NCBI GenBank assembly: GCA_963702405.1
Contig: CAVPCM010000011.1
Coordinates: 19,764-83,763, forward strand
Direction of reading: 5' to 3'
DNA: 64,000 nt
Source of the DNA: an uncultured Actinomycetota bacterium
GTDB taxonomy: Bacteria > Actinomycetota > UBA4738 > HRBIN12
Shown: one piece after another, positions 21,942-44,480 of the stretch
Position numbering within the stretch: position 1 is the first letter of the stretch
Layout of the letters: every line of letters begins with the position of its first letter
Program-made: the position numbers and the translations under genes
Notes under the pieces: generated by a model
Database searches by the model: none
What the model was told of the DNA's origin: nothing
What the model saw: the letters and a program-made list of their open reading frames with translations, nothing else

Positions 21942-22016
21942 CGGGCCGTGGCGCAGCTTGGTTAGCGCGTCTGACTGGGGGTCAGAAGGTCGCCGGTTCG
22001 AATCCGGCCGGCCCGA
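21942..22016 (+). tRNA. tRNA-Pro (anticodon GGG)
   Basis: Cloverleaf folded by hand. 7-bp acceptor stem CGGGCCG/CGGCCCG, anticodon loop CTGGGGG with GGG at 34-36, T-loop GTTCGAAT. CCA is not encoded. Confidence 0.85.
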
Positions 22017-31924: not shown

Positions 31925-34699
31925 TTACGCGGCCTCGCGCTCCGGCCGGCGCTTCCGGGTGGTCGCGACCACGGTCACGCCGATCCCGAAGAGCACCATC
32001 GAGATGATCCCCAGCCGTCCGGCGTCCGATCCCGTGAACGGGGTCGGCGGGTTCGGCGGGGTCGCACCGGCGATCGGGGTCACGATGGCGTCGTCGTCGG
32101 AGCTCACCGACCGGCCGAGGATGTCCTCGCCGGTCGCCGTGCCGACGTTGGTGACGGGAACGTCACCCACCACGAAGTCCTTCGTCAGCGTGGCGGACTC
32201 CCCGGGCTCGAGGACCGCGATGTCCCCGACGTGTCCCAGGATGTCGTCGTCGACGCTGATGTCGTACAGCGTGGTGTCGCCCGTGTTCGTGACGACGTAG
32301 GTGTAGGTCACGGTCGTGCCGATCGGCACCGTGTCCTCGTCCACCGTCTTCACGATCTCGATCGCGGGGTGGATCAGGTCCGTGACGCAGTTGGCCAGGG
32401 CCTCCACCGCCGCGCGGCTGCCGACGCCCGAGCCCTTCGCCGTGACTTCGTTGACGACGGGGTCCGGATCGCTGTTCAGCACCACGTAGTCGAAGTCGTG
32501 CGACTCGGACGCACCCACCGCGAGCTCGTCCGCGAAGGATGCGGACAGGTCGCCGAGGATCGTGTCCATGACGGTCACGCCGTCGAGATCCTCATCACCC
32601 GTGTTCGTCACGGTGATCGTGTAGGTCACCGTGTCGCCCGCGTGCGCCAGCTCGGTGCAGCTCTTGGTCACGCCGATCGACGGGTTGAGGATGTCGGTCT
32701 CGCAGGACGCCTCGTCCGAGGCCTCCACTCCCGAGTCCGCGCCGTCGCCCGTCGCGGTCACCGTGTTGGTGATCGGGTCGGGGTCACCGGCCTGCGGCGA
32801 GTAGGTGACGACCGCTGTAGCCGTCGCACCCACCGGGAACGGGTTCGAGAAGTCGAAGTCGAAGTCGTCCGTGATATCACCCAGGAGGGTGTCGTTCACG
32901 GTGACGCCGACCAGCGCCTCGTCGCCCGTGTTCTCGACGGTGACCGTGTACTCGATGTCCTCACCGAACGGCACCTCGAGCGGGCACGTCTTCTCGACGT
33001 CGATGTCCGGCTCGTGGGTGACGTCGGTCTCGCACTCGTCGGTGTCGGTGTCGGTGACACCGGAGTCCACCCCGTCACCGGAAGCGGTGACCGAGTTCTC
33101 GACCGGGTCCTCGTTGGCGCCCGGCGTGTAGACGAAGTCGTGCGAGTACACGGTGTTGCCGACCGGCAGCGGGTCCGGCAGGTTGAACGCCGCCGTGATG
33201 TCGCCGCCCAGCAGGGCGTCGGTCACGGAGACGTTCTCGAGCGGCTCGTTGCCGGTGTTCTTCACCGTGATCGTGAAGGTCACGTCGTCACCGAACGGCA
33301 CCGACCGCGGGCACGTCTTCTCGACGTCGATCCCGGGCACGTGCGTGATGTCGGTGTCACACGTGTCGGTGTCGGTGACCTGGGTGCTCGAGAATACGCC
33401 GTCCGCCGTGACGGTCACCGTGTTCGGGAGTGGGTCCGGGTCGTTCGCATCCGGCGTGTAGACGTACTGTGCCGAGTCCGATGCGCCGGCCGCCAGCGTG
33501 TCGGCGAAGAGGTTCGAGATGTCGTCGGGAGCGTTCCCGTTCACCGTGTCGGTGACGACGATGTTCTCGAGATCCTCGTTGCCGTTGTTCGTGATCGTGA
33601 TGTCGTAAGTGACGTTGCCACCGAGGGCCGCCGCCGCCGGGCAGGTCTTCACGATGTCGATCGCGGGCTCCGCGACGAACCCGGTGGACTTCATCGGAAC
33701 CGTCTGCTGCCCGACCGGGATCGTGTCGTCGCCGTTGCTCGACACCCGGCCGGACTCGATCGCGTTGAGGATGTTCCCGGTGGGGGTCTCACCCTGCATG
33801 CAAGTGAGTTCCGCGATCAGCCGGAGGATCACGACGTCGCCGGCATCGAGCCCCTCGATCTCGACCGTGCCGGTCACCTGGTCGTAGCCCGAGGAATCGA
33901 ACCCCTCGGCGATCAGGGTCGCCGACTCGTCGCCGTCGAGGTTCTTGTTCCCGTCATCCGGCGTGTTGATGTCGACGCTGATGATGTCGTCGAAGCCGAG
34001 TCCGGGCTGGCCGGTCGTCTCGGCGCCGAACGTGTAGTCCAGCTCGATCGTGCCACCTGCCGCGGCGCCGGAGTCCACCGTGATCTCCGTGAAGAAGGTC
34101 ACGTAGTCCCCGCACTCGAAGTCGCCGGCCTCCAGCGATTCCACGACGCCGTTGGACTTGCTGATGGTCCGGTTGTCGTACCCGAACTGCGGGTGCGTGC
34201 CGAGACCGGTGGCGTGGTCGTACGTGAACGGCCCGGCCGCGACGTAGTCGAGGTCGATGTCGCCACCGTCGAGTTCCGACGCGGGCGGTGCCGCCGGAGC
34301 CGCGATCGCGGTGGTCCGGTTGACACGAGCGACGTTGATCTGGCCCTTCCGGGCTTCGCCCGCCCCCGTTGCCGCCGCTCCGGTGCCCGAGGTGTCCCCG
34401 TCGGCCTCAGCCGTGGGAGCCTCTTCTGCCGGAACCTCGGCGGGAGCCTCCTCAGCCGGAGCCTCCTCGACGGGAGCCTCCTCAGCCGGAGCCTCCTCTA
34501 CAGGAACCGTGCCTTCCCCCGTGCTGCCGTCCGAGAGGGCTTCCTCGGCGGCGACGGGATCGGTGCCGGCGTCGTCTGCCAGCGCGCTCAGCGAGCTCTG
34601 TCCGAGTGCGAACGCGAACAGGAGCACGAACGAGACGAACGAGGCAAGCCCGCGCTTGGTTCGGCGCCGGCTTTGCCGAGAGTTCGTTCTGGTACCCAT
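31925..34699 (-). CDS. large secreted surface protein with tandem DUF11 repeats and C-terminal PFTG sorting signal
   Basis: Signal peptide and AEEAP repeats. At least 5 DUF11-like modules (I..KTCP...V.Y.ITV.NTG.E.L..V.V.D.). C-terminus TPFTGSD + TM + RKRR. GGTGGAGG RBS. Confidence 0.8.
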   Translation of the reverse strand: MGTRTNSRQSRRRTKRGLASFVSFVLLFAFALGQSSLSALADDAGTDPVAAEEALSDGSTGEGTVPVEEAPAEEAPVEEAPAEEAPAEVPAEEAPTAEADGDTSGTGAAATGAGEARKGQINVARVNRTTAIAAPAAPPASELDGGDIDLDYVAAGPFTYDHATGLGTHPQFGYDNRTISKSNGVVESLEAGDFECGDYVTFFTEITVDSGAAAGGTIELDYTFGAETTGQPGLGFDDIISVDINTPDDGNKNLDGDESATLIAEGFDSSGYDQVTGTVEIEGLDAGDVVILRLIAELTCMQGETPTGNILNAIESGRVSSNGDDTIPVGQQTVPMKSTGFVAEPAIDIVKTCPAAAALGGNVTYDITITNNGNEDLENIVVTDTVNGNAPDDISNLFADTLAAGASDSAQYVYTPDANDPDPLPNTVTVTADGVFSSTQVTDTDTCDTDITHVPGIDVEKTCPRSVPFGDDVTFTITVKNTGNEPLENVSVTDALLGGDITAAFNLPDPLPVGNTVYSHDFVYTPGANEDPVENSVTASGDGVDSGVTDTDTDECETDVTHEPDIDVEKTCPLEVPFGEDIEYTVTVENTGDEALVGVTVNDTLLGDITDDFDFDFSNPFPVGATATAVVTYSPQAGDPDPITNTVTATGDGADSGVEASDEASCETDILNPSIGVTKSCTELAHAGDTVTYTITVTNTGDEDLDGVTVMDTILGDLSASFADELAVGASESHDFDYVVLNSDPDPVVNEVTAKGSGVGSRAAVEALANCVTDLIHPAIEIVKTVDEDTVPIGTTVTYTYVVTNTGDTTLYDISVDDDILGHVGDIAVLEPGESATLTKDFVVGDVPVTNVGTATGEDILGRSVSSDDDAIVTPIAGATPPNPPTPFTGSDAGRLGIISMVLFGIGVTVVATTRKRRPEREAA

Positions 34700-34989
34700 C
34701 CTCCACCCCCCAACTGGTGTCTGTGCTACTTCGTTGCCCTATGGACCCGGTCGACGCCCTACGGCGTACACCGTGGTCCTCTTGCCCAGAAAGGTAACCC
34801 CTCCATCCGGGGGACACATCGGGCGAACGGCCTCGCCGCTCCTGGCAGACGGAGTAGTCCGTTCGGAGGAGCGAGAGCGTGCAGGAAGCTCACTGTTGCG
34901 CGAGGCAGAAACATCGAGCACGTGCGGAAGGATCGGGGAGGAGCCAGATCGACCGGGCCCGACGACTGGTTCCCGGCTCTCGGGTTGCT

Positions 34990-37053
34990 CTAGCTGTCGG
35001 CCTCGCGACGCCTGCGGGAGGCTGCGAGCAGCAGGAGCGATCCCACCACGGCGATCGCCGCGGCCCAGCCCGAGAGGGTGCCCGTGGCGGAGCCCGTGAA
35101 GGGGTTCCCACCCGCCGCCCCGTCTCCGCCGTCTCCACCCGCCCCGCCTGCGACCGCTGACACGGTCACCTCGTCGACATCGCTCACCGATGCCCCGAGC
35201 ACGTCGGAGCCCGTCGCGGTGGCGACGTTGGTGATGGGGGAGGAGCCGAGGGTGATCTCGAACGTCAGCTCGCTACTCTGACCCGCTGCGAGAGAAGCGA
35301 TGTCGCCGACGTGCCCGACGACGTCGTCGTCGACCGAGATGCCGAAGAGGGTCGTGTCGCCCGTGTTCATGACGGCGTAGGTGTAGACGATGATGGTCCC
35401 GGCCGGACCCGATGTCGGACTCGCCGACTTCTCGATGTCGATGTCGGGGTGGATCAGGTCGATGTCGTGCGTATCGGTGTCGGAGACGGTTCCTCCATCG
35501 TGAACCCCGGTCACGGTGGCCTGATTGTGGACGGGGTCGCCGTCGGCCGCCACGATCGTATGGTCACACGCGAACGCCCAGCTCTCGTCCACGGCGAGGA
35601 CGGCGTCGCCGTTGCCGTCGTCCGTACGATCCGGTGTGGTGTCGCAGCGCGCGTCCGTCAGGTCGATGTCCGTCAGGTCGACGCCTCCCGTGTTGGTCAC
35701 GGAGAAGGTGTAGGCGACGGTGTCGCCGACGTGCGCGAGCGCCGGGCCGCCCTTCCGGAGCCTGATCCGCGGCGCGCACGCGATCTCATCCGAAGCCTCG
35801 GCATGGTTGTCGGGACCGATGTTCACGGTGGGCTCGTTGGTGCCCTCGACATCCACGACGTTCGTGATCGCACCGCACTCCTTGCCCGTCACGGAGACCC
35901 TGAACGCGACCGAAGCGGAATCGCCCGGTCCGAGCGTGATGGGGCCGCAGTTGACCGTCGCCTGGGCGATACCGCCCGGTGGGATGGAACTGGCGATGAC
36001 ACACGGGTGCCCGTCGAACATCGGGAAGGGCGAGACCGAGATGCTCATCGCATCCCCCGGCGGGAGCGCGTCGATGAGTTCGACGCCCGTGGCCTGCACG
36101 TCGCCGATGTTCGTGACCATGATCGTGTAGAGGAAGGAGTCTCCTTCGTGGAGGATCCCACCGGCGTCCGATGTCTTCGTGACCTGGAGATCCGGCGGGC
36201 CGGGCTCCTCGCACTCGACCGAGTTGCTCGCCTCGTTCGAATCGTTGCTCCCGGCGGCCTGCTCCGTCTCGTTCGCCGCCGAGACGTGCGCATCGTTCAC
36301 GATCGGACCGCAGAACCCGTCGTCGACCGTGACCGCGATGTCGAGCGAGACGTTCGCACCGGCGCCGATGTCACCGAGCGCGCAGGTGACCAGGCCGGCC
36401 ACTTCGTCGCAGCCCGCGGTGGCATCGGCGAACGTGACGCCCGCCGGCAGCTGATCGGCGACGTGCACGTCGCTCGCGGTGGCGGTGCCGTCGTTGGACA
36501 CCGACAGGGTGTAGGTGATCGAGTCGCCGTTCTGGACGATGCCGCCCGGATCGTTCACCTTCACGACGGACACGTCGGGTTCGGGCGGCGCGTCGTTCCA
36601 GCAGATGGCGAGGTGGCTCACCGAGTAGTAGCCGCCATCCGGCTTCTGCGGGCTGTGGAGGTCGTGGTCGCCGGTATCGCCCGCCGGATAGGCGAACAGC
36701 TCGCCGCCGCTCGGTCCGCCCTTCACGTAGACGCCGTGCACCGGAAGGGGCGAGGACCAGTCCGCGAACCCTGTCGGGCTGTTGTAGCCGGTGGCGGTGA
36801 CCGTCATGGCGCCGCTGGACGCCTGGCCGTTGCTCGCGATCGAGATCCCGTGATCGAAGCCCAGCTGGCCGCAGTCGTCGTTCGAGGACTGGGTGTCGGC
36901 GATGACGGGGATGACGCCATCGGCGGAAGGCGGGCCGGGGGAGTCCACGGGCGGTGCCGCTTCGGCCGTCAGGATCCCCGCTTGACCGGCGAGGAGCGCC
37001 AACGCCACGATCGGTCCCAGGAGTCCCCGGCGCCGATGCTTCCGTCCCTCCAT
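34990..37053 (-). CDS. large secreted surface protein with DUF11 repeats and C-terminal NPFTG sorting signal (paralog)
   Basis: Start chosen at MEGRKHRRRGLLGPIVALALLAG (AGGAGG RBS 7 nt upstream). The last DUF11 module is clearly paralogous to the upstream gene. C-terminus NPFTGS + TM + RRRR. Confidence 0.75.
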   Translation of the reverse strand: MEGRKHRRRGLLGPIVALALLAGQAGILTAEAAPPVDSPGPPSADGVIPVIADTQSSNDDCGQLGFDHGISIASNGQASSGAMTVTATGYNSPTGFADWSSPLPVHGVYVKGGPSGGELFAYPAGDTGDHDLHSPQKPDGGYYSVSHLAICWNDAPPEPDVSVVKVNDPGGIVQNGDSITYTLSVSNDGTATASDVHVADQLPAGVTFADATAGCDEVAGLVTCALGDIGAGANVSLDIAVTVDDGFCGPIVNDAHVSAANETEQAAGSNDSNEASNSVECEEPGPPDLQVTKTSDAGGILHEGDSFLYTIMVTNIGDVQATGVELIDALPPGDAMSISVSPFPMFDGHPCVIASSIPPGGIAQATVNCGPITLGPGDSASVAFRVSVTGKECGAITNVVDVEGTNEPTVNIGPDNHAEASDEIACAPRIRLRKGGPALAHVGDTVAYTFSVTNTGGVDLTDIDLTDARCDTTPDRTDDGNGDAVLAVDESWAFACDHTIVAADGDPVHNQATVTGVHDGGTVSDTDTHDIDLIHPDIDIEKSASPTSGPAGTIIVYTYAVMNTGDTTLFGISVDDDVVGHVGDIASLAAGQSSELTFEITLGSSPITNVATATGSDVLGASVSDVDEVTVSAVAGGAGGDGGDGAAGGNPFTGSATGTLSGWAAAIAVVGSLLLLAASRRRREADS

Positions 37054-37371
37054 CTTTCCTCCTGGTCCGTTTCGCGCCATGTCGGGGCACAGAACCCTCT
37101 GTCGGCCGGTCGACCCACACCCTACGGGGGGAGGGGGGACGGGGACATCGGCCGGAAGACGCGGACCATCAGCCCGATGCTTGGGCCAGATACCGGACGG
37201 AGCTTCGCATCCACCTGGGGCGGAAGCAAGAACGACGATCAGCCCCCGATGTGTCGGGTGGATCGCTCGGACGCCCATCGGCCGGGGGAGGGAGAGGCCA
37301 CAGGGGTCGTTCCCAGGGAAGTTACATAATGAGCGTTATCGGGGTAGCGGACGCGAGGGCCGCTCGACATC

Positions 37372-39699
37372 TCATGCGGCGGACGGCCCTCCTCGGTACG
37401 GCCTCCCGGTCGCTCTGAGCGCGATGCCCCAGCGGGTGACGAGCCAGAGCGCCTCAACGACGATCCGCCGCGAGAGCTTCGAATGACCGTGTTCCCGTTC
37501 GCGGAACGTGATCGGCACCTCGCCGATCGACCAACCCCGGAGCCAGGAGCGCATCACGAGCTCGACCTGGAAGCCATACCCGTCGGCGTGGAACGGCTCG
37601 GCGACGAGGTCCGATAGCAGCTCGCGACGATATACACGGTAGCCGCTCGTGGCATCGTGCACCGGCACGCCGAGCATAAGCCGCGCGTAGGCGTTGCCCA
37701 CCCTCGAGAGCGCCAGGCGCAACCGGCTCCAGTTGGTCACGGAGCCTCCGGGTACGTACCGGCTCCCCACCACGAGGTGAAAGCGGTCGCGGGCGCCGGC
37801 CAGGAGGGCATCGAGCTGCACAGGATCGTGGGAGAGGTCGGAGTCCATCTCCACGATCAGGTCGTACCGCTCCTCGAGCGCCCTTCGGAAGCCCTCCTGG
37901 TAGGCGCTCGCGAGCCCAGACCTCGCGGGTCGTTCGACGAGGCGGAGCCGTGGCTCCCCCGCCATCAGCTCCCGGACGATCCGTGCGGTGCCGTCGGGTG
38001 AGGAGTCGTCGACGACGAGCGCGTCCACGCCCGGATGCTCGAGCACGCCGGCCACGACGTCACGGATCGTGGCCGCCTCGTCGTAGGTGGGCAGGATCAC
38101 GAGCGAGCGAGCGCCCTCGGCGAGCGGCTCGGGGTCGGGCCACTCGCGACGGCGACCCCGCGGCACCACGGCGAGACCCGCCACGATCACCAACGAGAGG
38201 ATGGGCAGCCAGTCCCCCAGTCGCACCGACCACGTCTGCTCCGACGAGGCCCGGATCGTGTGCCGGATCAGCGCCGGCTCGAACAGCTCGGTCTCATCGT
38301 GGACGCGGCCCGTCGGGTCGATGAACGCGCTGATACCCGAGACGGCCGCGTGCACGATCCACCTGCCGTCCTCGATCGCACGGAGCCGCGACATCTGCAG
38401 ATGCTGGGCGGATGCGGCCGTGCGGTCGTAGGACGCGTTGTTCGTGAGGACCACGAGGAACTCCGCGCCCTGACGGACGAGCTCGCGATCGAGCGCCGGG
38501 AAGCTGTTCTCGAAGCAGATCGGCGCTCCGAACTCAGGGAGCCCCGGTGCAGTCAAGGTGTGGAGTCGCTCCCCTGGCGTGAGCTCGTAGGCGATCTGCT
38601 CGAGCGCGGAGATCCACCCGACGACGGGCTTCCAGGGGATGTACTCCCCGTACGGGACGAGGTGGGTCTTCCTGTACACGTCGACCACCGCTCCCCCGCC
38701 ATCGAAGACGACCGCCTGATTGAACAGCGCATCGCCTCCCTTCCCCGATCGGATGTCCTCCGAGGTGGCCCCGGTGAGGACCGGCGTCCCGACGTCCGCG
38801 ATCGAGCTCCGCACCTCGTCGAGGATCGAGAGCGAGCCCGGATCGAGGGCGCTCTCTCCCCAGACGGCCAGATCGGGAGGATCGCCGCTCAGCGTCGCAT
38901 GGAGCTCGAGGTTGAGCCTCGTGACCGCGACGTCTCCTTCCTCCCTCGACCGTCCTGTGACCCCTTCGAGGAAGTCGACCTGGATCGCGGCCACGTCGAT
39001 CTCCCGCCCGGAAGCCTCCGCGAAGGGGATCGCCGCCGGTCCCAGCGTGGCGATCGCCGCCAGGCCGATGGCGGTGAGCCGCGTCGGCGCCCCCTCCGCG
39101 CCGGCGGCCTCCACGACGAGCGCGGCCGCGAACGCCACCGCGAACGTGACCCCGAACACCCCGGCGAGGACGGCGAGGCGAACCGTGACCGGGTTGGCCA
39201 CCTGCGAGGCGCCGAGGGAGCCCCACGTGAAGCCCCCGAGCGGCCAGAGTCCCCGGAGCCAGTCGATCGACGTCCACAACGCCGCCGCCCCGAGCGCGTT
39301 CAGCATCGGATGGCCCGACCGACGTACCAACGGCAAGCAGGCACCGAACAACGCCACGGACGCCGCCGTGAGCACCGTCAAGGCGCTCCAGGCGAGGGTG
39401 CCGAAGAGCTGGAGCCACGAGAGCGTGAGTCCGAAGCCGACGAGTCCGTAGACGAGCCCGAGGGCGAAGCCCCGGGCCGGTGTGGCGTTCCGGAGTCCGA
39501 TCAGGAGCAACGCGGGAGCGACGAAGGCGAGCGGCCAGGCGGCAACGGGCGGGAACGCGAGCGAGGACAGCACGCCCCCGACGAGGGAGAGGGTGAGCGC
39601 GACCGGCAGCCTGGGATCGATCAGGCGCAGTCGCGGCAGAACATCCGCCGTTTGTCCGCGAGCTGGCTGCGATGTTTCACCAGGTAGCAGTTCTTGCAT
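37372..39699 (-). CDS. ppm1: bifunctional apolipoprotein N-acyltransferase-like / polyprenol-monophosphomannose synthase (Lnt-Ppm1 fusion as in M. tuberculosis Rv2051c)
   Basis: N-terminal multi-TM plus CN-hydrolase (Lnt) domain. C-terminal GT2 DPM1-like domain (LPTYDEAATI...VVDDSSPDGT...EMDSDLSHDP). Annotated ATG start overlaps the upstream gene by 79 nt, so the true start is uncertain. Confidence 0.8.
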   Translation of the reverse strand: MQELLPGETSQPARGQTADVLPRLRLIDPRLPVALTLSLVGGVLSSLAFPPVAAWPLAFVAPALLLIGLRNATPARGFALGLVYGLVGFGLTLSWLQLFGTLAWSALTVLTAASVALFGACLPLVRRSGHPMLNALGAAALWTSIDWLRGLWPLGGFTWGSLGASQVANPVTVRLAVLAGVFGVTFAVAFAAALVVEAAGAEGAPTRLTAIGLAAIATLGPAAIPFAEASGREIDVAAIQVDFLEGVTGRSREEGDVAVTRLNLELHATLSGDPPDLAVWGESALDPGSLSILDEVRSSIADVGTPVLTGATSEDIRSGKGGDALFNQAVVFDGGGAVVDVYRKTHLVPYGEYIPWKPVVGWISALEQIAYELTPGERLHTLTAPGLPEFGAPICFENSFPALDRELVRQGAEFLVVLTNNASYDRTAASAQHLQMSRLRAIEDGRWIVHAAVSGISAFIDPTGRVHDETELFEPALIRHTIRASSEQTWSVRLGDWLPILSLVIVAGLAVVPRGRRREWPDPEPLAEGARSLVILPTYDEAATIRDVVAGVLEHPGVDALVVDDSSPDGTARIVRELMAGEPRLRLVERPARSGLASAYQEGFRRALEERYDLIVEMDSDLSHDPVQLDALLAGARDRFHLVVGSRYVPGGSVTNWSRLRLALSRVGNAYARLMLGVPVHDATSGYRVYRRELLSDLVAEPFHADGYGFQVELVMRSWLRGWSIGEVPITFREREHGHSKLSRRIVVEALWLVTRWGIALRATGRPYRGGPSAA

Positions 39700-39977
39700 A
39701 CGAACTCGGTCGCCTGGATGGGGACGACACGGGCCTCGACCGGCTCGAGACGGTCATCCGCCTTCGTCGTCGAGATCGGGACGACGGGCTCCTCCTCGTC
39801 GGCCTCGTCCTCGTCGTCACGGGCCTCCTGCTTCTCGAGGACCTCGTGGATCGATTCGACGTCGGCAGCCGCCGGTGTGGCGGCTTCGTCCAGGTCCTCC
39901 TCGGTCGGCTCGAGCTCGTCGAGCTCCTGGTCCGTTCCGGCGTCGTCGTCTTCGCGCTCTTCCGTGCGCTCGGCCAC
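39621..39977 (-). CDS. acidic zinc-ribbon protein, DUF4193-like
   Basis: Acidic N-terminus. C-terminal FVCKNCYLVKHRSQL...FCRDCA (C4). GTG start with GGAGGAA RBS. Confidence 0.65.
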   Translation of the reverse strand: MAERTEEREDDDAGTDQELDELEPTEEDLDEAATPAAADVESIHEVLEKQEARDDEDEADEEEPVVPISTTKADDRLEPVEARVVPIQATEFVCKNCYLVKHRSQLADKRRMFCRDCA

Positions 39978-40291
39978 CTGGTTCCTCCGGGTTCGGGTCC
40001 TCGATCCGGCCGCGGATTCTAGCGCTCACTCCCCCGCGTGCCTCGTGCGACTCGGTCGCAGGGGAAGGACGCCTCGCAGGCTCAGGATGTTCCCCGAGCG
40101 CGGAGCCCGGAAACGCGGAAGCCCGAGAGACCTTTGGGGCCGCGACGCCGGGGCGCCGCGTTCTCTACTCAGCCTCTCGGGCTCCGCTGCGCGTCTCCGC
40201 CGGGGCGGCGACGCAGGCAGGACGTTACCGACGGCCGGGCGGGAGAGCAACCCGACACCGAGAGAAACAGTGACAAGACCAGCCCCGGCGA
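39978..40291 (-). ncRNA. long GC-rich structured non-coding region (5' leader of the DUF4193 gene / possible ncRNA)
   Basis: Several long imperfect helices found by hand (e.g. GCGGAGCCCGAGAG / CTCTCGGGCTTCCGC; CGCGGCGCC/GGCGTCGCG). Class and function unknown. Confidence 0.3.
40222..40250 (-). promoter_or_regulatory. sigma-A-like promoter (TTGCTC-17-TAACGT on minus strand) inside the structured intergenic region
   Basis: Read directly. Same -10 hexamer TAACGT as the candidate promoter upstream of the FHA gene. Confidence 0.35.
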
Positions 40292-41791
40292 TCAGGCGCG
40301 GAACACTTCGCGGCCGAGGGAGACCGTCAGGACCGGGCGGAGCCCCTCCACGGTGGACGCATCGAGGGGGTCGGCGTCGTAGGCGGCGAAGTCCGCGTGC
40401 CACCCGGGCTCGAGGGCCCCCTTCTTGCCGTCCTGGCGCCCGAGACGGGCGCTCCCCACCCGGTGGAGCTTGAGCCCCTCGAGCCGCGTCAGTCGCTGGG
40501 TCGGCTCGTGGTGCTCCTCGAGCGCGGCGATCGCGAGCATCGGGTCGAGGGGTGCGACAGGTGCGTCGGAGCCGACGCCGACCTCGATCCCGCGTTCGAG
40601 CATCGTGCGGATCGGGTGCGCGGCCATGGCCCGGGCGGGGCCGAGGCGCTCCTCGTACATCCCGCCTCCCTGGCCCCAGAGTCGATCGAACGCAGGTTGC
40701 ACGGATACGGCGAGACCCAGCATCGCGGTCCGCTCGATCTGATCCGCCGAGGGCAGGACGAAGTGTTCGATCCGATGGCGACGCGCGCGGAAGTGCCGTC
40801 GTTCACGGGAATCCAGCGCCAGGTAGACGCGCTCCCACGTGGCGAGGACCTGTTCGATCGCGCGGTCTCCGATCGCGTGCACGCCCACCTGGAGTCCCGC
40901 GTTGTGGGCCGCGTGGAAGAACTCCGCCATCGCGTCGTCGTCGTGGTACAGCTCGCCCGTGTCCGCGACGTCGTCGTAGGCGTGGGACAGCGCCGCGGTC
41001 CGGGCGCCGATCGAGCCGTCGACCGGGAGGTCCCCGCCGATCGCGGTGAGCCGCCGTTCCATCGCCTCGGGGAGCGACATCGACGCGAGGATCGGTGCGA
41101 CGTCGACCGGCAGCCGGGAACGATGTCCGAGGAGCACCTCCAGGTCCGCGGCGTCGAGGGACATCTCGTGCACCGCCGTCACACCCCGTGACGCGGCGAG
41201 CCCGGCGGCTTGCAGCTGGAACCCCTCGATCGCCCGCGTGTCGTAGGAGGCCTCCGCCCACGCGACGGCCCGTCGGTTGGCCTCCTTCGTGAGGCGGCCG
41301 GTCGGATGTCGTTCCGCGTCGAGTTCGATCCCGTCCGCATCGGCGAGGTCGATCGCGGCGAGTGTCGACGAGCTCACGACGGAGATGTGCCCGTCCGCCC
41401 TCGTCGCCACCACGGGCGTCGGCGTGATCGCGTCGAGGTCCTGTGCGGTCGGGAGCTCGTGCGAGTCCCACCGGGTCTCGTCGAACCCCTCGACGTGCAC
41501 GACAGCGACGCCCTCCGTGGCGCGCCGGCGGACCAGGGCGAGGAAGTCCTGCTTGGAGCGGGACTCCCGCACGTCGGCGTTCGCGAGGGAGCGACCCGTC
41601 GCCGTCAGGTGGACGTGGCTATCGATGAAGCCCGGGACGATCGTCGTCCCGGGGAGATCGATCGTGAGCTCCGCATCGGGGGGCTCTCCGGTGCCGACGC
41701 GTTGGACGTGGCGATCGTCCACGAGGATCCACTCCCCCAACGTGGGATGCGAAAGCGTCACGACCCGCGACGCGCGGTAGAGGGTCCTCAC
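40292..41791 (-). CDS. amidohydrolase-superfamily metal-dependent hydrolase (amidohydrolase 3/YtcJ-like)
   Basis: IVPGFIDSHVHL metal-binding HxH and TIM-barrel hydrolase features. GTG start overlapping the stop of the upstream RT gene (GTGA). Confidence 0.8.
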   Translation of the reverse strand: MRTLYRASRVVTLSHPTLGEWILVDDRHVQRVGTGEPPDAELTIDLPGTTIVPGFIDSHVHLTATGRSLANADVRESRSKQDFLALVRRRATEGVAVVHVEGFDETRWDSHELPTAQDLDAITPTPVVATRADGHISVVSSSTLAAIDLADADGIELDAERHPTGRLTKEANRRAVAWAEASYDTRAIEGFQLQAAGLAASRGVTAVHEMSLDAADLEVLLGHRSRLPVDVAPILASMSLPEAMERRLTAIGGDLPVDGSIGARTAALSHAYDDVADTGELYHDDDAMAEFFHAAHNAGLQVGVHAIGDRAIEQVLATWERVYLALDSRERRHFRARRHRIEHFVLPSADQIERTAMLGLAVSVQPAFDRLWGQGGGMYEERLGPARAMAAHPIRTMLERGIEVGVGSDAPVAPLDPMLAIAALEEHHEPTQRLTRLEGLKLHRVGSARLGRQDGKKGALEPGWHADFAAYDADPLDASTVEGLRPVLTVSLGREVFRA

Positions 41792-42504
41792 GGCGCCGCG
41801 ATGATAGAGGAGTCCCGCTCACCGAGCAGCACCACGGCCGCTTCTTCGCGATCCTCGAAGACCCTCGTCTTGTCCCGATGGAGCTCGAGGCCGATCGCCT
41901 CCCCGGCCGTGCGCATCGCGGCCATCGCGGCCCTGACCTCGTCGGCAGGCCCCCACAGGACGACGTCATCGACCCAACGGAGGTGCCGGGCGCCGGCGCT
42001 CCGGATCGCACGATCCAGGCGGGACAAGGCCGCGTTCGCGAGGACGGCGGATGGCTCCGGGCCCACGGGGAGCCCGCGCACGCCTGCCTCGTGGAACCGG
42101 CGGAGGAGGGCAACCGCCTGCGCGCTCTCCGGACCCAGCAGCACTCCGATCGTCTCGAGCGAGATCGAGGCGTAGCAGTCGCGCACGTCGGCGACCGCGA
42201 ACGTCGCCCCCGGAGCGTCGAGGATCGCCCGCCGGATGCTGCTGCGCCACGTGGCACGTGCCGCTCTCCATGGCGCGAGCGTCCATCCGGCATCGTCTCG
42301 CCTCGCGCGCACGGCCACCACTTCGGGCCCCAGGGAACGCTCGATCCGGCCCAGGAGCGGGCCGACCGACGCTCGGTACGCCGCGTCATCCGCGGGACCG
42401 AGCACGGTCAGCCAGCGGGTTCCGCCGCCGGGCTTGGAGATGGGGATCGATCGCGGGCAGGGGCTGTCATCCCTGCCCGTGGGCCGCGTGGGACGCCGCC
42501 GCAT
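41788..42504 (-). CDS. compact reverse transcriptase (RT motifs 1-7, no thumb/X domain), about 238 aa
   Basis: Motif 1-2 IPISKPGGGTRWLTVLGPADDAAYRA. Motif 3 AVADVRDCYASI. Motif 4 GLPVGPEPSAVLANAAL. Motif 5 RWVDDVVLW. Motif 6 GLELHRDKTRVF. Motif 7 VVLLGE. GGAGGAG RBS 9 nt upstream of ATG 42504. The 116-aa extension in the ORF track is antisense to lrp and judged non-coding. Confidence 0.75.
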   Translation of the reverse strand: MRRRPTRPTGRDDSPCPRSIPISKPGGGTRWLTVLGPADDAAYRASVGPLLGRIERSLGPEVVAVRARRDDAGWTLAPWRAARATWRSSIRRAILDAPGATFAVADVRDCYASISLETIGVLLGPESAQAVALLRRFHEAGVRGLPVGPEPSAVLANAALSRLDRAIRSAGARHLRWVDDVVLWGPADEVRAAMAAMRTAGEAIGLELHRDKTRVFEDREEAAVVLLGERDSSIIAAP

Positions 42505-42606: not shown

Positions 42607-43068
42607 GTGTGGGACCATGCCGCCGTGCTGGATGAGCGGGATCTCGCGATCCTCACGGCCCTGCAGGCGGATGGCCGCGCCACGTACGCGGACGTCGGCG
42701 CGACGGTGGGGCTCTCGGCGAGCGCCGTGCACGAGCGTGTCCGGAAGCTCGAGCAGCAAGGGGTGATCCGTGGATACAGGGCCGTCGTGGATCCCGAGGC
42801 CGTCGGTCTGTACGTGACGGCGCTGATCGCCGCGATCCCGCTCGATCCGCATCAGCCCGACGACCTGCCGGCGAGGGTGCGGGAATTCCCGGAGGTCGAG
42901 GACTGCTACTCGGTCGCCGGTGAGGCGAACTACGTGCTGAAGGTCCGGACGAAGACGACGGGTGACCTGGAGGATCTGATCCGGCGACTCCGCGAGAAGG
43001 CGGCGGTGACCACGAACACCACGATCGCGCTCTCGATCCCGTTCGAGGGCCGCGCTCTGCGTCCGTGA
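42607..43068 (+). CDS. Lrp/AsnC family transcriptional regulator
   Basis: LDERDLAILTALQADGRATYADVGATVGLSASAVHERVRKLEQQGVIRGY plus a C-terminal RAM domain. Start is GTG 42607 or GTG 42625. Confidence 0.8.
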   Translation: MWDHAAVLDERDLAILTALQADGRATYADVGATVGLSASAVHERVRKLEQQGVIRGYRAVVDPEAVGLYVTALIAAIPLDPHQPDDLPARVREFPEVEDCYSVAGEANYVLKVRTKTTGDLEDLIRRLREKAAVTTNTTIALSIPFEGRALRP

Positions 43069-43088
43069 CCCGTCGGTAGGATTGGCCC

Positions 43089-44480
43089 GTGCGCCTGTAC
43101 AACACCCTTTCGCGTGCCGTCGAGGAGATCGTTCCCGTCGACGGCCGGTTGGTGCGGATCTACTCGTGCGGTCCCACGGTCTACCGGTACATCCACATCG
43201 GGAACATGCGCTCGTTCATGCTGGGGGATCTGATCCGCCGCGCCCTCCGCTTCGAGGGGCTCGACGTCCGGTGGATCATGAACATCACCGATGTCGGTCA
43301 CATGACCGACGAGGTGAGCGACACGGGCAGAGACAAGATGGAGCTGGCCGAGTCCGATGAAGGGCTCTCGGCAGCCGAGATCGCCGAGAAGTACACCCAG
43401 GCCTTCCTCGAGGACGCCGACCTGGTCGGCATCGAGCGGGCCGACCTGTATCCGCGGGCGACGGACCACATCCCGGAGATGATCTCGATGATCGAGACGC
43501 TGATCGAGAAGGGCCACGCCTACGAGGTCGACGGGACCGTCTACTTCGAGACCACGACCTTCCCGGGGTACGGGAAGCTCTCGGGGAACACGCTCGATCA
43601 ATTGCGAGCGGGGCATCGAACGGAGCTGGCGACGGATCCGGGCAAGCGGCACCCCGAGGACTTCGCGCTGTGGAAGAAGGCCGGCGCGAACCGTCTGTTG
43701 CGATGGCCGAGTCCGTGGGGCGACGGATATCCGGGGTGGCATATCGAGTGCTCCGCGATGTCGATCAAGCATCTGGGCGATCGCTTCGACGTGCACACCG
43801 GGGGCAACGACAACAAGTTCCCGCACCACGAGGACGAGATCGCGCAGTCGGAAGGCGCCGTCGGTCATCCCGTCGTGTCGATCTGGGCACACGGCGGGTT
43901 CCTGCAGATGGGCGGCCAGAAGATGGCGAAATCCGCGAAGAACATCAAGCGGGTGACCGATCTGGCCGAGCAGGGTATCGACCCCCTCGCTTTCCGGTGG
44001 TTCACGTTCCAGACCCGGTATCGATCCGAGATGGACTTCACGTGGGAGGCACTGGAGACGGCCGATCATCGCGTGAAGCAGCTGCGGAGGCACGTCGCCG
44101 AGTGGGGCGAGCCGGTCGACGACCTCGACCCGGCCGCGAAGGAGTTCGATTCACGGTTCCGCGAGGCCGTCGCGAACGACCTCGACATGCCGGCGGCCGT
44201 CCGTGTGGTGAACGACCTCGATCACTCGCCCGACGTCTCGACCGGCGAGAAGAGGAGGCTCCTGGCGACCTGGGATCGCGTCCTCGGACTCGATCTCGAA
44301 CGGGAAGCGCGAGCGGCGTGGGAGCCCACGGTGGAGGTCCGAAAGCTGATAGCAGAACGCGACACCGCTCGAGCGTCGAAGGACTACGCGCGCTCGGACG
44401 AGCTCCGGGACGAGCTCCAGGCGATGGACCTCGAGGTCATGGACACTCCCGAGGGGACGAGGGTCCGCCCGCGAGACTGA
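43089..44480 (+). CDS. cysS: cysteine--tRNA ligase
   Basis: CGPTVYRYIHIGNMRS (HIGH), KMAKS, zinc-binding WHIECS, and a C-terminal anticodon-binding domain. MshC would lack the C-terminal domain. Confidence 0.85.
   Translation: MRLYNTLSRAVEEIVPVDGRLVRIYSCGPTVYRYIHIGNMRSFMLGDLIRRALRFEGLDVRWIMNITDVGHMTDEVSDTGRDKMELAESDEGLSAAEIAEKYTQAFLEDADLVGIERADLYPRATDHIPEMISMIETLIEKGHAYEVDGTVYFETTTFPGYGKLSGNTLDQLRAGHRTELATDPGKRHPEDFALWKKAGANRLLRWPSPWGDGYPGWHIECSAMSIKHLGDRFDVHTGGNDNKFPHHEDEIAQSEGAVGHPVVSIWAHGGFLQMGGQKMAKSAKNIKRVTDLAEQGIDPLAFRWFTFQTRYRSEMDFTWEALETADHRVKQLRRHVAEWGEPVDDLDPAAKEFDSRFREAVANDLDMPAAVRVVNDLDHSPDVSTGEKRRLLATWDRVLGLDLEREARAAWEPTVEVRKLIAERDTARASKDYARSDELRDELQAMDLEVMDTPEGTRVRPRD

Follow-up and report, generated by a model that had tools for sequence, protein, structure and literature searches.

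A candidate small RNA family linked to DUF4193 genes in uncultured Actinomycetota

In a 64,000-nt stretch of contig CAVPCM010000011.1 from an uncultured Actinomycetota bacterium (hereafter the window, within which all positions are counted), a 314-nt spacer separates a gene for an Amidohydro_3 protein (the amidohydrolase), itself preceded by a reverse transcriptase (RT) gene, from a gene for DUF4193, a small zinc-ribbon protein found across Actinobacteria. We found that the minus strand of this spacer carries a conserved and covarying RNA structure of about 106 nt, and, from the signals around it here and in its relatives, we lean towards the view that the spacer holds a separate gene for a stand-alone structured small RNA. 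The element belongs to a previously undescribed RNA family, absent from Rfam and of a known general kind, and it is known from about 190 loci of uncultured, mostly soil, Actinomycetota. RT, amidohydrolase, the spacer with its RNA, DUF4193 and a fused Lnt-Ppm1 gene all lie on the minus strand (Table 1).

Structure and conservation of the RNA

The initial annotation had placed the spacer at 39978-40291, with a length of 314 nt, in agreement with the open reading frame (ORF) boundaries at 40292 and 39977; in a syntenic locus (L003) the gaps between called genes were about 8-130 nt (one pair overlapping) as against 362 nt for the orthologous spacer. The same annotation had described a 5′ hairpin (P1), a long bulged helix (P2) and a GC-rich hairpin enclosed by it (P3), and all three were present on the minus strand, P3 with 8 bp. 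P2 is formed by GCGGAGCCCGAGAGGCU pairing with GGUCUCUCGGGCU(U)CCGC, and between P2 and P3 lies an internal loop whose 5′ strand, GAGUAGAGAA, was observed in a single variant form, GAGUAGACAA, at two loci (L040 and L193), and whose 3′ strand, GCCCCAAA, varied to GCUCC, GCACC, GACCC and GUUCC only. Relatives have UUCG or CUCG as the tetraloop of P1, which is CCCG in the window. Of the copies found, the most divergent (L193:5765-5882) carries the loop variants GAGUAGACAA and GUUCCAAA, which show the tolerated loop positions, namely G to C at one purine and the first two C of the C-run. A reading of GAGUAGAGAAC as a 5S rRNA loop-E strand or a sarcin-ricin AGUA motif was rejected, as the opposite strand was mismatched and there was no Rfam 5S match.

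Folding of the whole 314 nt was unconvincing by energy alone, with z scores of -1.62 for the minus and +0.42 for the plus strand. The 106-nt RNA (40214-40109) had a minimum free energy (MFE) of -66.4 kcal/mol and a z score of -4.45, with 0 of 200 shuffles as good, and its MFE fold was identical to the comparative structure. A covariance model of the RNA (R1) gave one match in the window, at 40221-40102 on the minus strand (107.3 bits, E 1.4e-21). A repeat or mobile element of the repetitive extragenic palindrome or miniature inverted-repeat type was ruled out by this single copy in 64 kb and by the finding that no repeat family covers the spacer. Likewise, ORFs across the region (e.g., 40026-40403, minus, 125 aa; 40169-40276, minus, 35 aa) were rejected as coding, given indels of 1-5 nt in the linker and P2 among homologues and UGA and UAG stops inside the invariant loop.

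Relatives were collected from uncultured genomes in three ways, seeded by the RT, by the loop pattern and by DUF4193 only. The RT has 963 homologues, nearly all of 238-240 aa and from uncultured Actinomycetota, and a scan of GTDB species genomes with the RT alignment yielded 64 loci, in which RT identity ranged between 35% and 89%. In three long contigs whose RTs are 61-70% identical, the order of a divergent AsnC-type helix-turn-helix (HTH) gene, RT, amidohydrolase, a gap of about 350 nt, DUF4193 and Lnt-Ppm1 is kept, and within the gap a core of some 180 nt shows about 100% identity, far above the conservation of the proteins. The synteny was kept in every RT-seeded locus that reached far enough, and a single-sequence nhmmer search found the RNA in all 60 complete RT loci, down to 35% RT identity.

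For covariation, 42 homologues with pairwise identity below 91.5% were used. RNAalifold recovered P2 and P3 from these sequences, with compensatory changes in 16 of its 29 pairs. Over the full P1-P2-P3 structure 96.1% of cells were paired and double changes were seen in 23 of 33 pairs, and the covariation score was 0.300, a value reached by 0 of 500 shuffles, as against 0.149 for shuffled alignments; slid controls scored 0.05-0.09 with 42-50% of cells paired. The helices described from the window alone are thus conserved and covarying in relatives, and it is this comparison that decides that they are more than chance. Taken singly, P1 showed changes on both sides in all 9 pairs (90.6% of cells paired), P2 compensatory changes in 10 of 16 pairs, for example AU:23/GC:12/CG:7 and AU:24/GC:12/CG:5 (97.6% paired), and P3 compensatory changes in 4 pairs (99.4% paired). 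The anatomy across the alignments was constant in its parts, with P1 beginning 7-8 nt past the -10 element, a linker of 2-5 nt, P2 of 16-17 bp, the internal loop, P3 of 8 bp (closed by CCCG or UUCG) and the tail.

No Rfam family matched the RNA. A scan of the whole window against Rfam 15 at the gathering threshold gave no match besides one tRNA, and a scan of the region 39800-40500 at E values up to 10 gave only a 15-nt chance match to Cyano-2. The RNA pattern did not occur in the viral contigs scanned, a full-text literature search for the loop sequences returned only unrelated primer matches, and no paper linking an RNA to DUF4193 was found in the literature.

Table 1. Features of the spacer and adjoining genes, in window coordinates
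Feature	Position	Strand	Remarks
Small RNA, ~106 nt	40109-40214	minus	P1, 3-nt linker, P2 with internal loop, P3, tail; predicted ends
P1, 5′ hairpin GCGUC-G-CCGC-CCCG-GCGG-A-GACGC	40191-40214	minus	5 bp, 1x1 loop, 4 bp, tetraloop CCCG
P2 5′ arm GCGGAGCCCGAGAGGCU	40171-40187	minus	pairs with 40132-40115
Internal loop, 5′ strand GAGUAGAGAA	40161-40170	minus	nearly invariant, columns invariant or at least 90% conserved; candidate recognition site
P3, 8-bp GC hairpin CGCGGCGC-CCCG-GCGUCGCG	40141-40160	minus	enclosed by P2 and the loop; UUCG loop in L063
Internal loop, 3′ strand GCCCCAAA	40133-40140	minus	nearly invariant
P2 3′ arm GGUCUCUCGGGCUUCCGC	40115-40132	minus	one bulged U
U/pyrimidine-rich tail GUUUCC	40109-40114	minus	terminator-like 3′ end
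-35 TTGCTC of RNA promoter	40245-40250	minus	TTGACA or TTGACC in most relatives
-10 TAACGT of RNA promoter	40222-40227	minus	actinobacterial TAnnnT type, 17 nt past -35; predicted start ~40215-40214
Upstream motif CTTGTCAC-TGTTTCT	40263-40277	minus	~56 nt upstream of predicted RNA start
Promoter-like site of extracytoplasmic function (ECF) sigma type, GGGGAAC-N17-CGTC	40068-40095	minus	between RNA and DUF4193
Proximal sigma-A-type promoter of DUF4193	40016-40044	minus	-35 GAGGCA, N17, -10 TAGAAT
Spacer, 314 nt	39978-40291	minus	between amidohydrolase end (40292) and DUF4193 start (39977)
DUF4193 coding sequence (CDS) and ribosome-binding site (RBS)	39621-39988	minus	RBS GGAGGA (39988-39983); GTG at 39977; CDS 39621-39977, 118 aa; Pfam PF13834, E 5.9e-14
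Fused Lnt-Ppm1 gene	37372-39699	minus
Amidohydro_3 protein (amidohydrolase)	40292-41791	minus	start overlaps RT stop (GTGA)
Reverse transcriptase, 238 aa	41788-42504	minus	100% identical to database protein P0001

Linkage of the RNA to DUF4193 and to the reverse transcriptase

A metagenome scan with the loop pattern added at least 120 loci to those from genomes. Wherever enough sequence was available among the matches listed, a co-oriented DUF4193 gene lay downstream of the RNA, in 61 of 61 genome loci and in 99 of 99 metagenome loci. The RNA was thus found co-oriented upstream of DUF4193 and Lnt-Ppm1 in three upstream contexts, which were the RT-amidohydrolase pair of the window, a divergent NurA-HerA-Mre11-Rad50 cluster, and SbcDC.

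The contexts lacking the RT-amidohydrolase pair were reached from two directions. Among the listed matches seeded by the RNA, tblastn detected no adjacent amidohydrolase in 8 of 97 loci, of which one (L094) keeps the C-terminal codons of the gene, leaving about seven clearly without it, and no RT match was obtained in 3 of the 49 loci with at least 2.4 kb of upstream sequence, one of which (L083) is perhaps an assembly artefact. Two of the RNA-bearing loci (L125 and L175) have divergent NurA and HerA genes upstream, with an Mre11-like gene in L175. In addition, searches seeded with the DUF4193 protein of the NurA-context lineage gave four loci with Rad50-Mre11-HerA-NurA upstream and one with SbcD-SbcC, and none of these five sister loci had an RT or amidohydrolase within 6-8 kb. 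The RNA was present in all five, in the same place and orientation (100-106 bits), and its promoter, the ECF-like site and a TACAAT element were recognisable there. In the lineages without the RT-amidohydrolase pair (L189-L193, L125 and L175) the upstream slot is occupied by double-strand-break repair operons, either NurA-HerA-Mre11-Rad50 (divergent) or SbcD-SbcC (co-directional).

These results bear on a proposal of the initial annotation, that the spacer might encode the cognate template or non-coding RNA (ncRNA) of the adjoining RT. Some RTs of the unknown group (UG) and defence-associated (DRT) type use structured ncRNAs, and the RNA would, on that proposal, be a template, primer or scaffold for the 238-aa RT and the amidohydrolase, as in retrons and DRT systems. 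The RT does resemble UG/DRT-type enzymes (Drt8, UG33 and UG36; E ~1e-18), the order RT, amidohydrolase, RNA was found in 62 of 62 RT-seeded genome loci with enough upstream sequence, and we noticed no terminator ahead of the RNA in the stretch after the amidohydrolase stop, so that read-through of the operon could include the RNA. However, the same near-invariant loops occur without RT or amidohydrolase in the two other contexts, and in two loci (L043 and L088) an insertion of about 3.6 kb parts the RT from the amidohydrolase while the RNA still adjoins DUF4193. About 1.5 kb separate the RNA from the RT upstream of it, the amidohydrolase lies between the two, and the RNA stands behind a promoter of its own. 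Furthermore, cysS, AsnC and Lnt are just as syntenic across all 64 RT loci, and therefore the co-occurrence with the RT reflects vertical synteny and not a functional module.

Comparison with RT-associated RNAs led to the same result. The RNA resembles the retron msr-msd and the DRT2, DRT9 and DRT3 ncRNAs in being a structured RNA near a UG/retron-like RT, in the lineage of the window, but it differs from them in its position beyond a second gene, in its own promoter and in its presence in lineages with no RT nearby; retron and DRT2/DRT9 ncRNAs are placed differently relative to their RTs. The msr-msd is encoded directly upstream of the RT and co-transcribed with it, and its flanking a1/a2 inverted repeats have no counterpart here, where the ends of the RNA are not paired with each other and both the MFE and the consensus fold consist of local hairpins, with the 5′ end closed in P1. 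Strict co-occurrence with an RT, which marks retron, DRT2, DRT3 and DRT9 RNAs, was not seen for this RNA, given the 3 of 49 listed RNA-seeded loci and the five sister loci without one. Because of the distribution of the RNA, a role as the RT's cognate RNA is largely refuted, and we regard it as very improbable. The RNA is instead, by its position across the loci, part of an RNA-DUF4193-Lnt module, and travels with DUF4193 and not with the RT. Since it was inseparable from DUF4193 over three upstream contexts, its function is likely tied to DUF4193 or to transcription and not to the RT. The two other possibilities raised with the template idea, a stand-alone ncRNA and a cis-acting leader of DUF4193, are both compatible with the evidence. 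Removing this tempting link matters for defining the RT-amidohydrolase pair as a defence or a retroelement system.

Promoter signatures, tail and the choice between gene and leader

Ahead of P1, every one of 169 distinct homologues has the pattern TTGNNN-N16-19-TANNNT, with the spacer taking 146 different forms; among shuffles the figure is 1.4%. The pattern ends 39-51 nt before the anchor position, its hexamers being kept and its spacer variable, and the -35 reads TTGACA 72 times and TTGACC 46 times. The sigma-A-like promoter TTGCTC-17-TAACGT proposed earlier from the window is strongly borne out by these counts, and a promoter signature of its own therefore lies directly upstream of the structured part of the RNA, as in small RNA genes. 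Further upstream, the nearer half of the loci share a conserved motif, CTTGTCAC-T(G/C)TTTCT, directly past the stop codon of the amidohydrolase, and sister lineages (L105, L175 and L193:5715-5735) have a related GTGACAAG / GTCACAAG immediately next to the -35; the CTTGTCAC motif may be a transcription-factor site. Its reading as a CRP site, by analogy with the top-ranked CRP site of Rv2699c, the DUF4193 gene of M. tuberculosis (PMC4117774, PMC2724278), was rejected for its misfit to TGTGA-N6-TCACA.

At the other end of the RNA, T makes up 48-69% of residues at most positions shortly past P2 (+58 and +60 to +62 from the anchor) and 26% at +59, and at least four T in 8 nt were found in 137 of 162 homologues (85%) as against about 13% of background segments. 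The stretch from there to the DUF4193 CDS is variable and indel-rich, with a length between about 66 nt (L125) and about 500 nt, and it holds two further promoter signatures. An ECF-like GGAAY-N15-19-CGTY was present in 92 of 159 homologues (58%) as against 2.3% of shuffles, with a spacing of 17 in 77 of them, and reads GGGAAY-N17-CGTT across the alignments; from its consensus we take it to be SigH/SigR/SigE-like. The second signature, proximal to the CDS, has a TAnnAT -10 in 159 of 159 homologues as against 17% of shuffles and in relatives consists of TTGCA or TTGCC, N17 and TA(G/C)AAT, followed by a short 5′ untranslated region and an RBS. RbpA, an RNA polymerase (RNAP)-binding protein, is likewise under SigR control in Streptomyces, and the ECF-type signature hints at stress induction of DUF4193.

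The combination of its own promoter, P1, a hairpin with a selected U-rich tail and two separate DUF4193 promoters fits a stand-alone small RNA. In such a gene, transcription would start at about 40214 from the sigma-A-type promoter TTGCTC-N17-TAACGT, and the transcript would fold into a protective 5′ hairpin, P1, and then the long helix P2, bearing the almost invariant asymmetric internal loop GAGUAGAGAA / GCCCCAAA and capped by P3. The GC-rich P2-P3 hairpin and the U/pyrimidine-rich tail would most likely end most transcripts at about 40109, and DUF4193 downstream would be transcribed from promoters of its own, one of ECF type and one of sigma-A type. A conserved partner, most likely a protein, would dock at the invariant loop and the sequence-conserved top of P2, and the RNA would act in trans.

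Several points weigh against this view. A strict scan of 39900-40400 for E. coli-type consensus signals found no promoter or terminator, the promoter hexamers of the window being weak relative to the E. coli consensus, and the U-tract is imperfect; the signals are, judged by sequence, of an actinobacterial type (TAnnnT, imperfect U-tracts), and only comparison brings them out. Loci of the NurA-linked lineage have a short tail (e.g., UUCGC...), with no more than about 11-13 nt before the ECF -35, so that read-through into DUF4193 is likely there. The co-orientation with DUF4193 in all 160 informative loci would be the same for a leader, and it is solely from the invariant loop nucleotides that the RNA is judged probably to bind a protein.

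Some of these points agree with a serious though less probable alternative, in which the RNA is a cis-acting 5′ leader of DUF4193, either a riboswitch-like aptamer or the site of an autoregulatory protein such as DUF4193 itself. Transcripts from the distal promoter would then carry P2 and P3, a ligand or protein would stabilise P2, the U-rich tail would attenuate transcription ahead of DUF4193, and under stress or in the basal state DUF4193 could escape this control through the two internal promoters. Small aptamers are typically built as the RNA is, as a hairpin interrupted by an invariant internal loop, and P2 with its U-tail resembles a terminator-type expression platform. Moreover, the RNA is always directly upstream of and co-oriented with DUF4193, whatever lies beyond, in the 160 listed loci and in the five DUF4193-seeded loci, and in the NurA lineage P2 lies only about 66-100 nt from the start codon with a weak tail, making read-through likely. 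The presence of two promoter signatures between element and CDS, the proximal one in every homologue (159 of 159), argues against a leader, as most DUF4193 mRNA need not carry the element, and so do the poor conservation of the element-to-CDS spacer and the alignments, in which no conserved anti-terminator pairing or RBS sequestering was noticed (no systematic search having been made). In M. tuberculosis the start site of Rv2699c has been mapped, and the gene belongs to the Shine-Dalgarno (leadered) class and is about 10-fold induced in starvation (PMC3898074); no comparable element has been reported there, a further point against a leader. The RNA shares with THF-II, the NMT1/xanthine motif and ribosomal-protein leaders the arrangement of a helix, a conserved internal loop and a second helix, the single co-oriented gene and the terminator-like tail, but differs from them in its own promoter and the two intervening promoters, in the lack of a detected alternative pairing and in having no Rfam match.

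A further alternative needs no functional RNA, as the hairpin could be a strong terminator of the upstream operon followed by the DUF4193 promoters. GC-rich hairpins with pyrimidine-rich tracts do have the look of terminators in high-GC Actinobacteria. However, a terminator has no need of an invariant 10/8-nt loop and invariant paired positions, here shared by lineages with about 50% protein identity, nor of a conserved promoter directly ahead of P1 (169 of 169 loci), and there is nothing to terminate in the NurA lineage, where the gene upstream is divergent. We give this explanation next to no credence.

Likeness to known RNAs, possible partners and neighbouring genes

The stand-alone small RNA that we favour would be most like 6C RNA (B11) and the Ms1/6S-like RNAs, which are similarly short and GC-rich, with a stable fold, their own sigma-A promoter, a fixed neighbourhood, C-rich hairpin loops and conservation across a large actinobacterial group. 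It differs from 6C RNA in its loops, which are CCCG tetraloops (changing to UUCG or CUCG) where those of the two hairpins of 6C RNA have at least 6 C each, and it gave no match to RF01066. 6S RNA forms a rod of about 180 nt whose large central bubble mimics an open promoter, as opposed to about 106 nt and a 10/8-nt internal loop here, and no 6S family of Rfam matched in the window at the gathering threshold or in 39800-40500 at E values up to 10. Ms1 is about 300 nt long, and the neighbourhood of 6C and Ms1, which we take to be Rv3660c-Rv3662c, differs from the DUF4193-Lnt neighbourhood of this RNA.

6S and Ms1 relate to RNAP, and a relation to RNAP may be shared by the present RNA, whose constant neighbour DUF4193 is predicted to bind RNAP beta/beta′. 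With little confidence, we also entertain the idea that the RNA is a partner of DUF4193 or of RNAP itself, as a mini nucleic-acid mimic or decoy that is either 'mini-6S'-like or serves to titrate or autoregulate DUF4193; the parts of such a mimic could be the 16-17-bp helix, the 10/8-nt bubble and the 8-bp helix. If this were true, transcription control in Actinobacteria would include a clade-specific layer with an RNA component.

DUF4193 (Rv2699c/ML1026) is essential in M. tuberculosis, its depletion leads to sensitisation to rifampicin, and AlphaFold3 predicts its binding to RNAP beta/beta′ near the downstream DNA channel (bioRxiv 10.64898/2026.07.15.738315). With a core more highly conserved than the proteins on either side, and physically locked to DUF4193 in three unrelated contexts, the RNA provides a new handle on the role of this protein. 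It also adds a family that Rfam lacks, in uncultured soil Actinomycetota, which are a large and abundant group.

The RT-amidohydrolase pair (40292-42504, minus) is chromosomal and inherited vertically, with occurrences in at least 64 species-level metagenome-assembled genomes (L001-L067), and is flanked by the housekeeping genes cysS, an AsnC-type regulator and Lnt-Ppm1. The RT keeps the catalytic motifs ADVRDCY, GLPxGPxPSAxLAN, RWVDD and KT and is without a thumb or C-terminal domain, its matches to Drt8, UG33 and UG36 covering the RT core only; the impression is of a domesticated mini-RT more than of a mobile defence island. The longer RT ORF listed for the window has a spurious N-terminal extension beyond the 238-aa protein. 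Between cysS and the RT lies an AsnC-type HTH gene that diverges from the RT, as seen from the called genes of L001 and L188, and an ORF at 42930-44093 (minus, 387 aa, without a Pfam match) was rejected as a gene, being an antisense shadow of cysS (43089-44480, plus, 463 aa).

Elsewhere in the window, the sole Rfam match at the gathering threshold is a tRNA gene at 21942-22016 (plus, 65.7 bits). Two large minus-strand repeat-protein genes with DUF11/CLIPPER and DUF7507 domains occupy 31925-37278, and their internal direct repeats account for most repeat families of the window.

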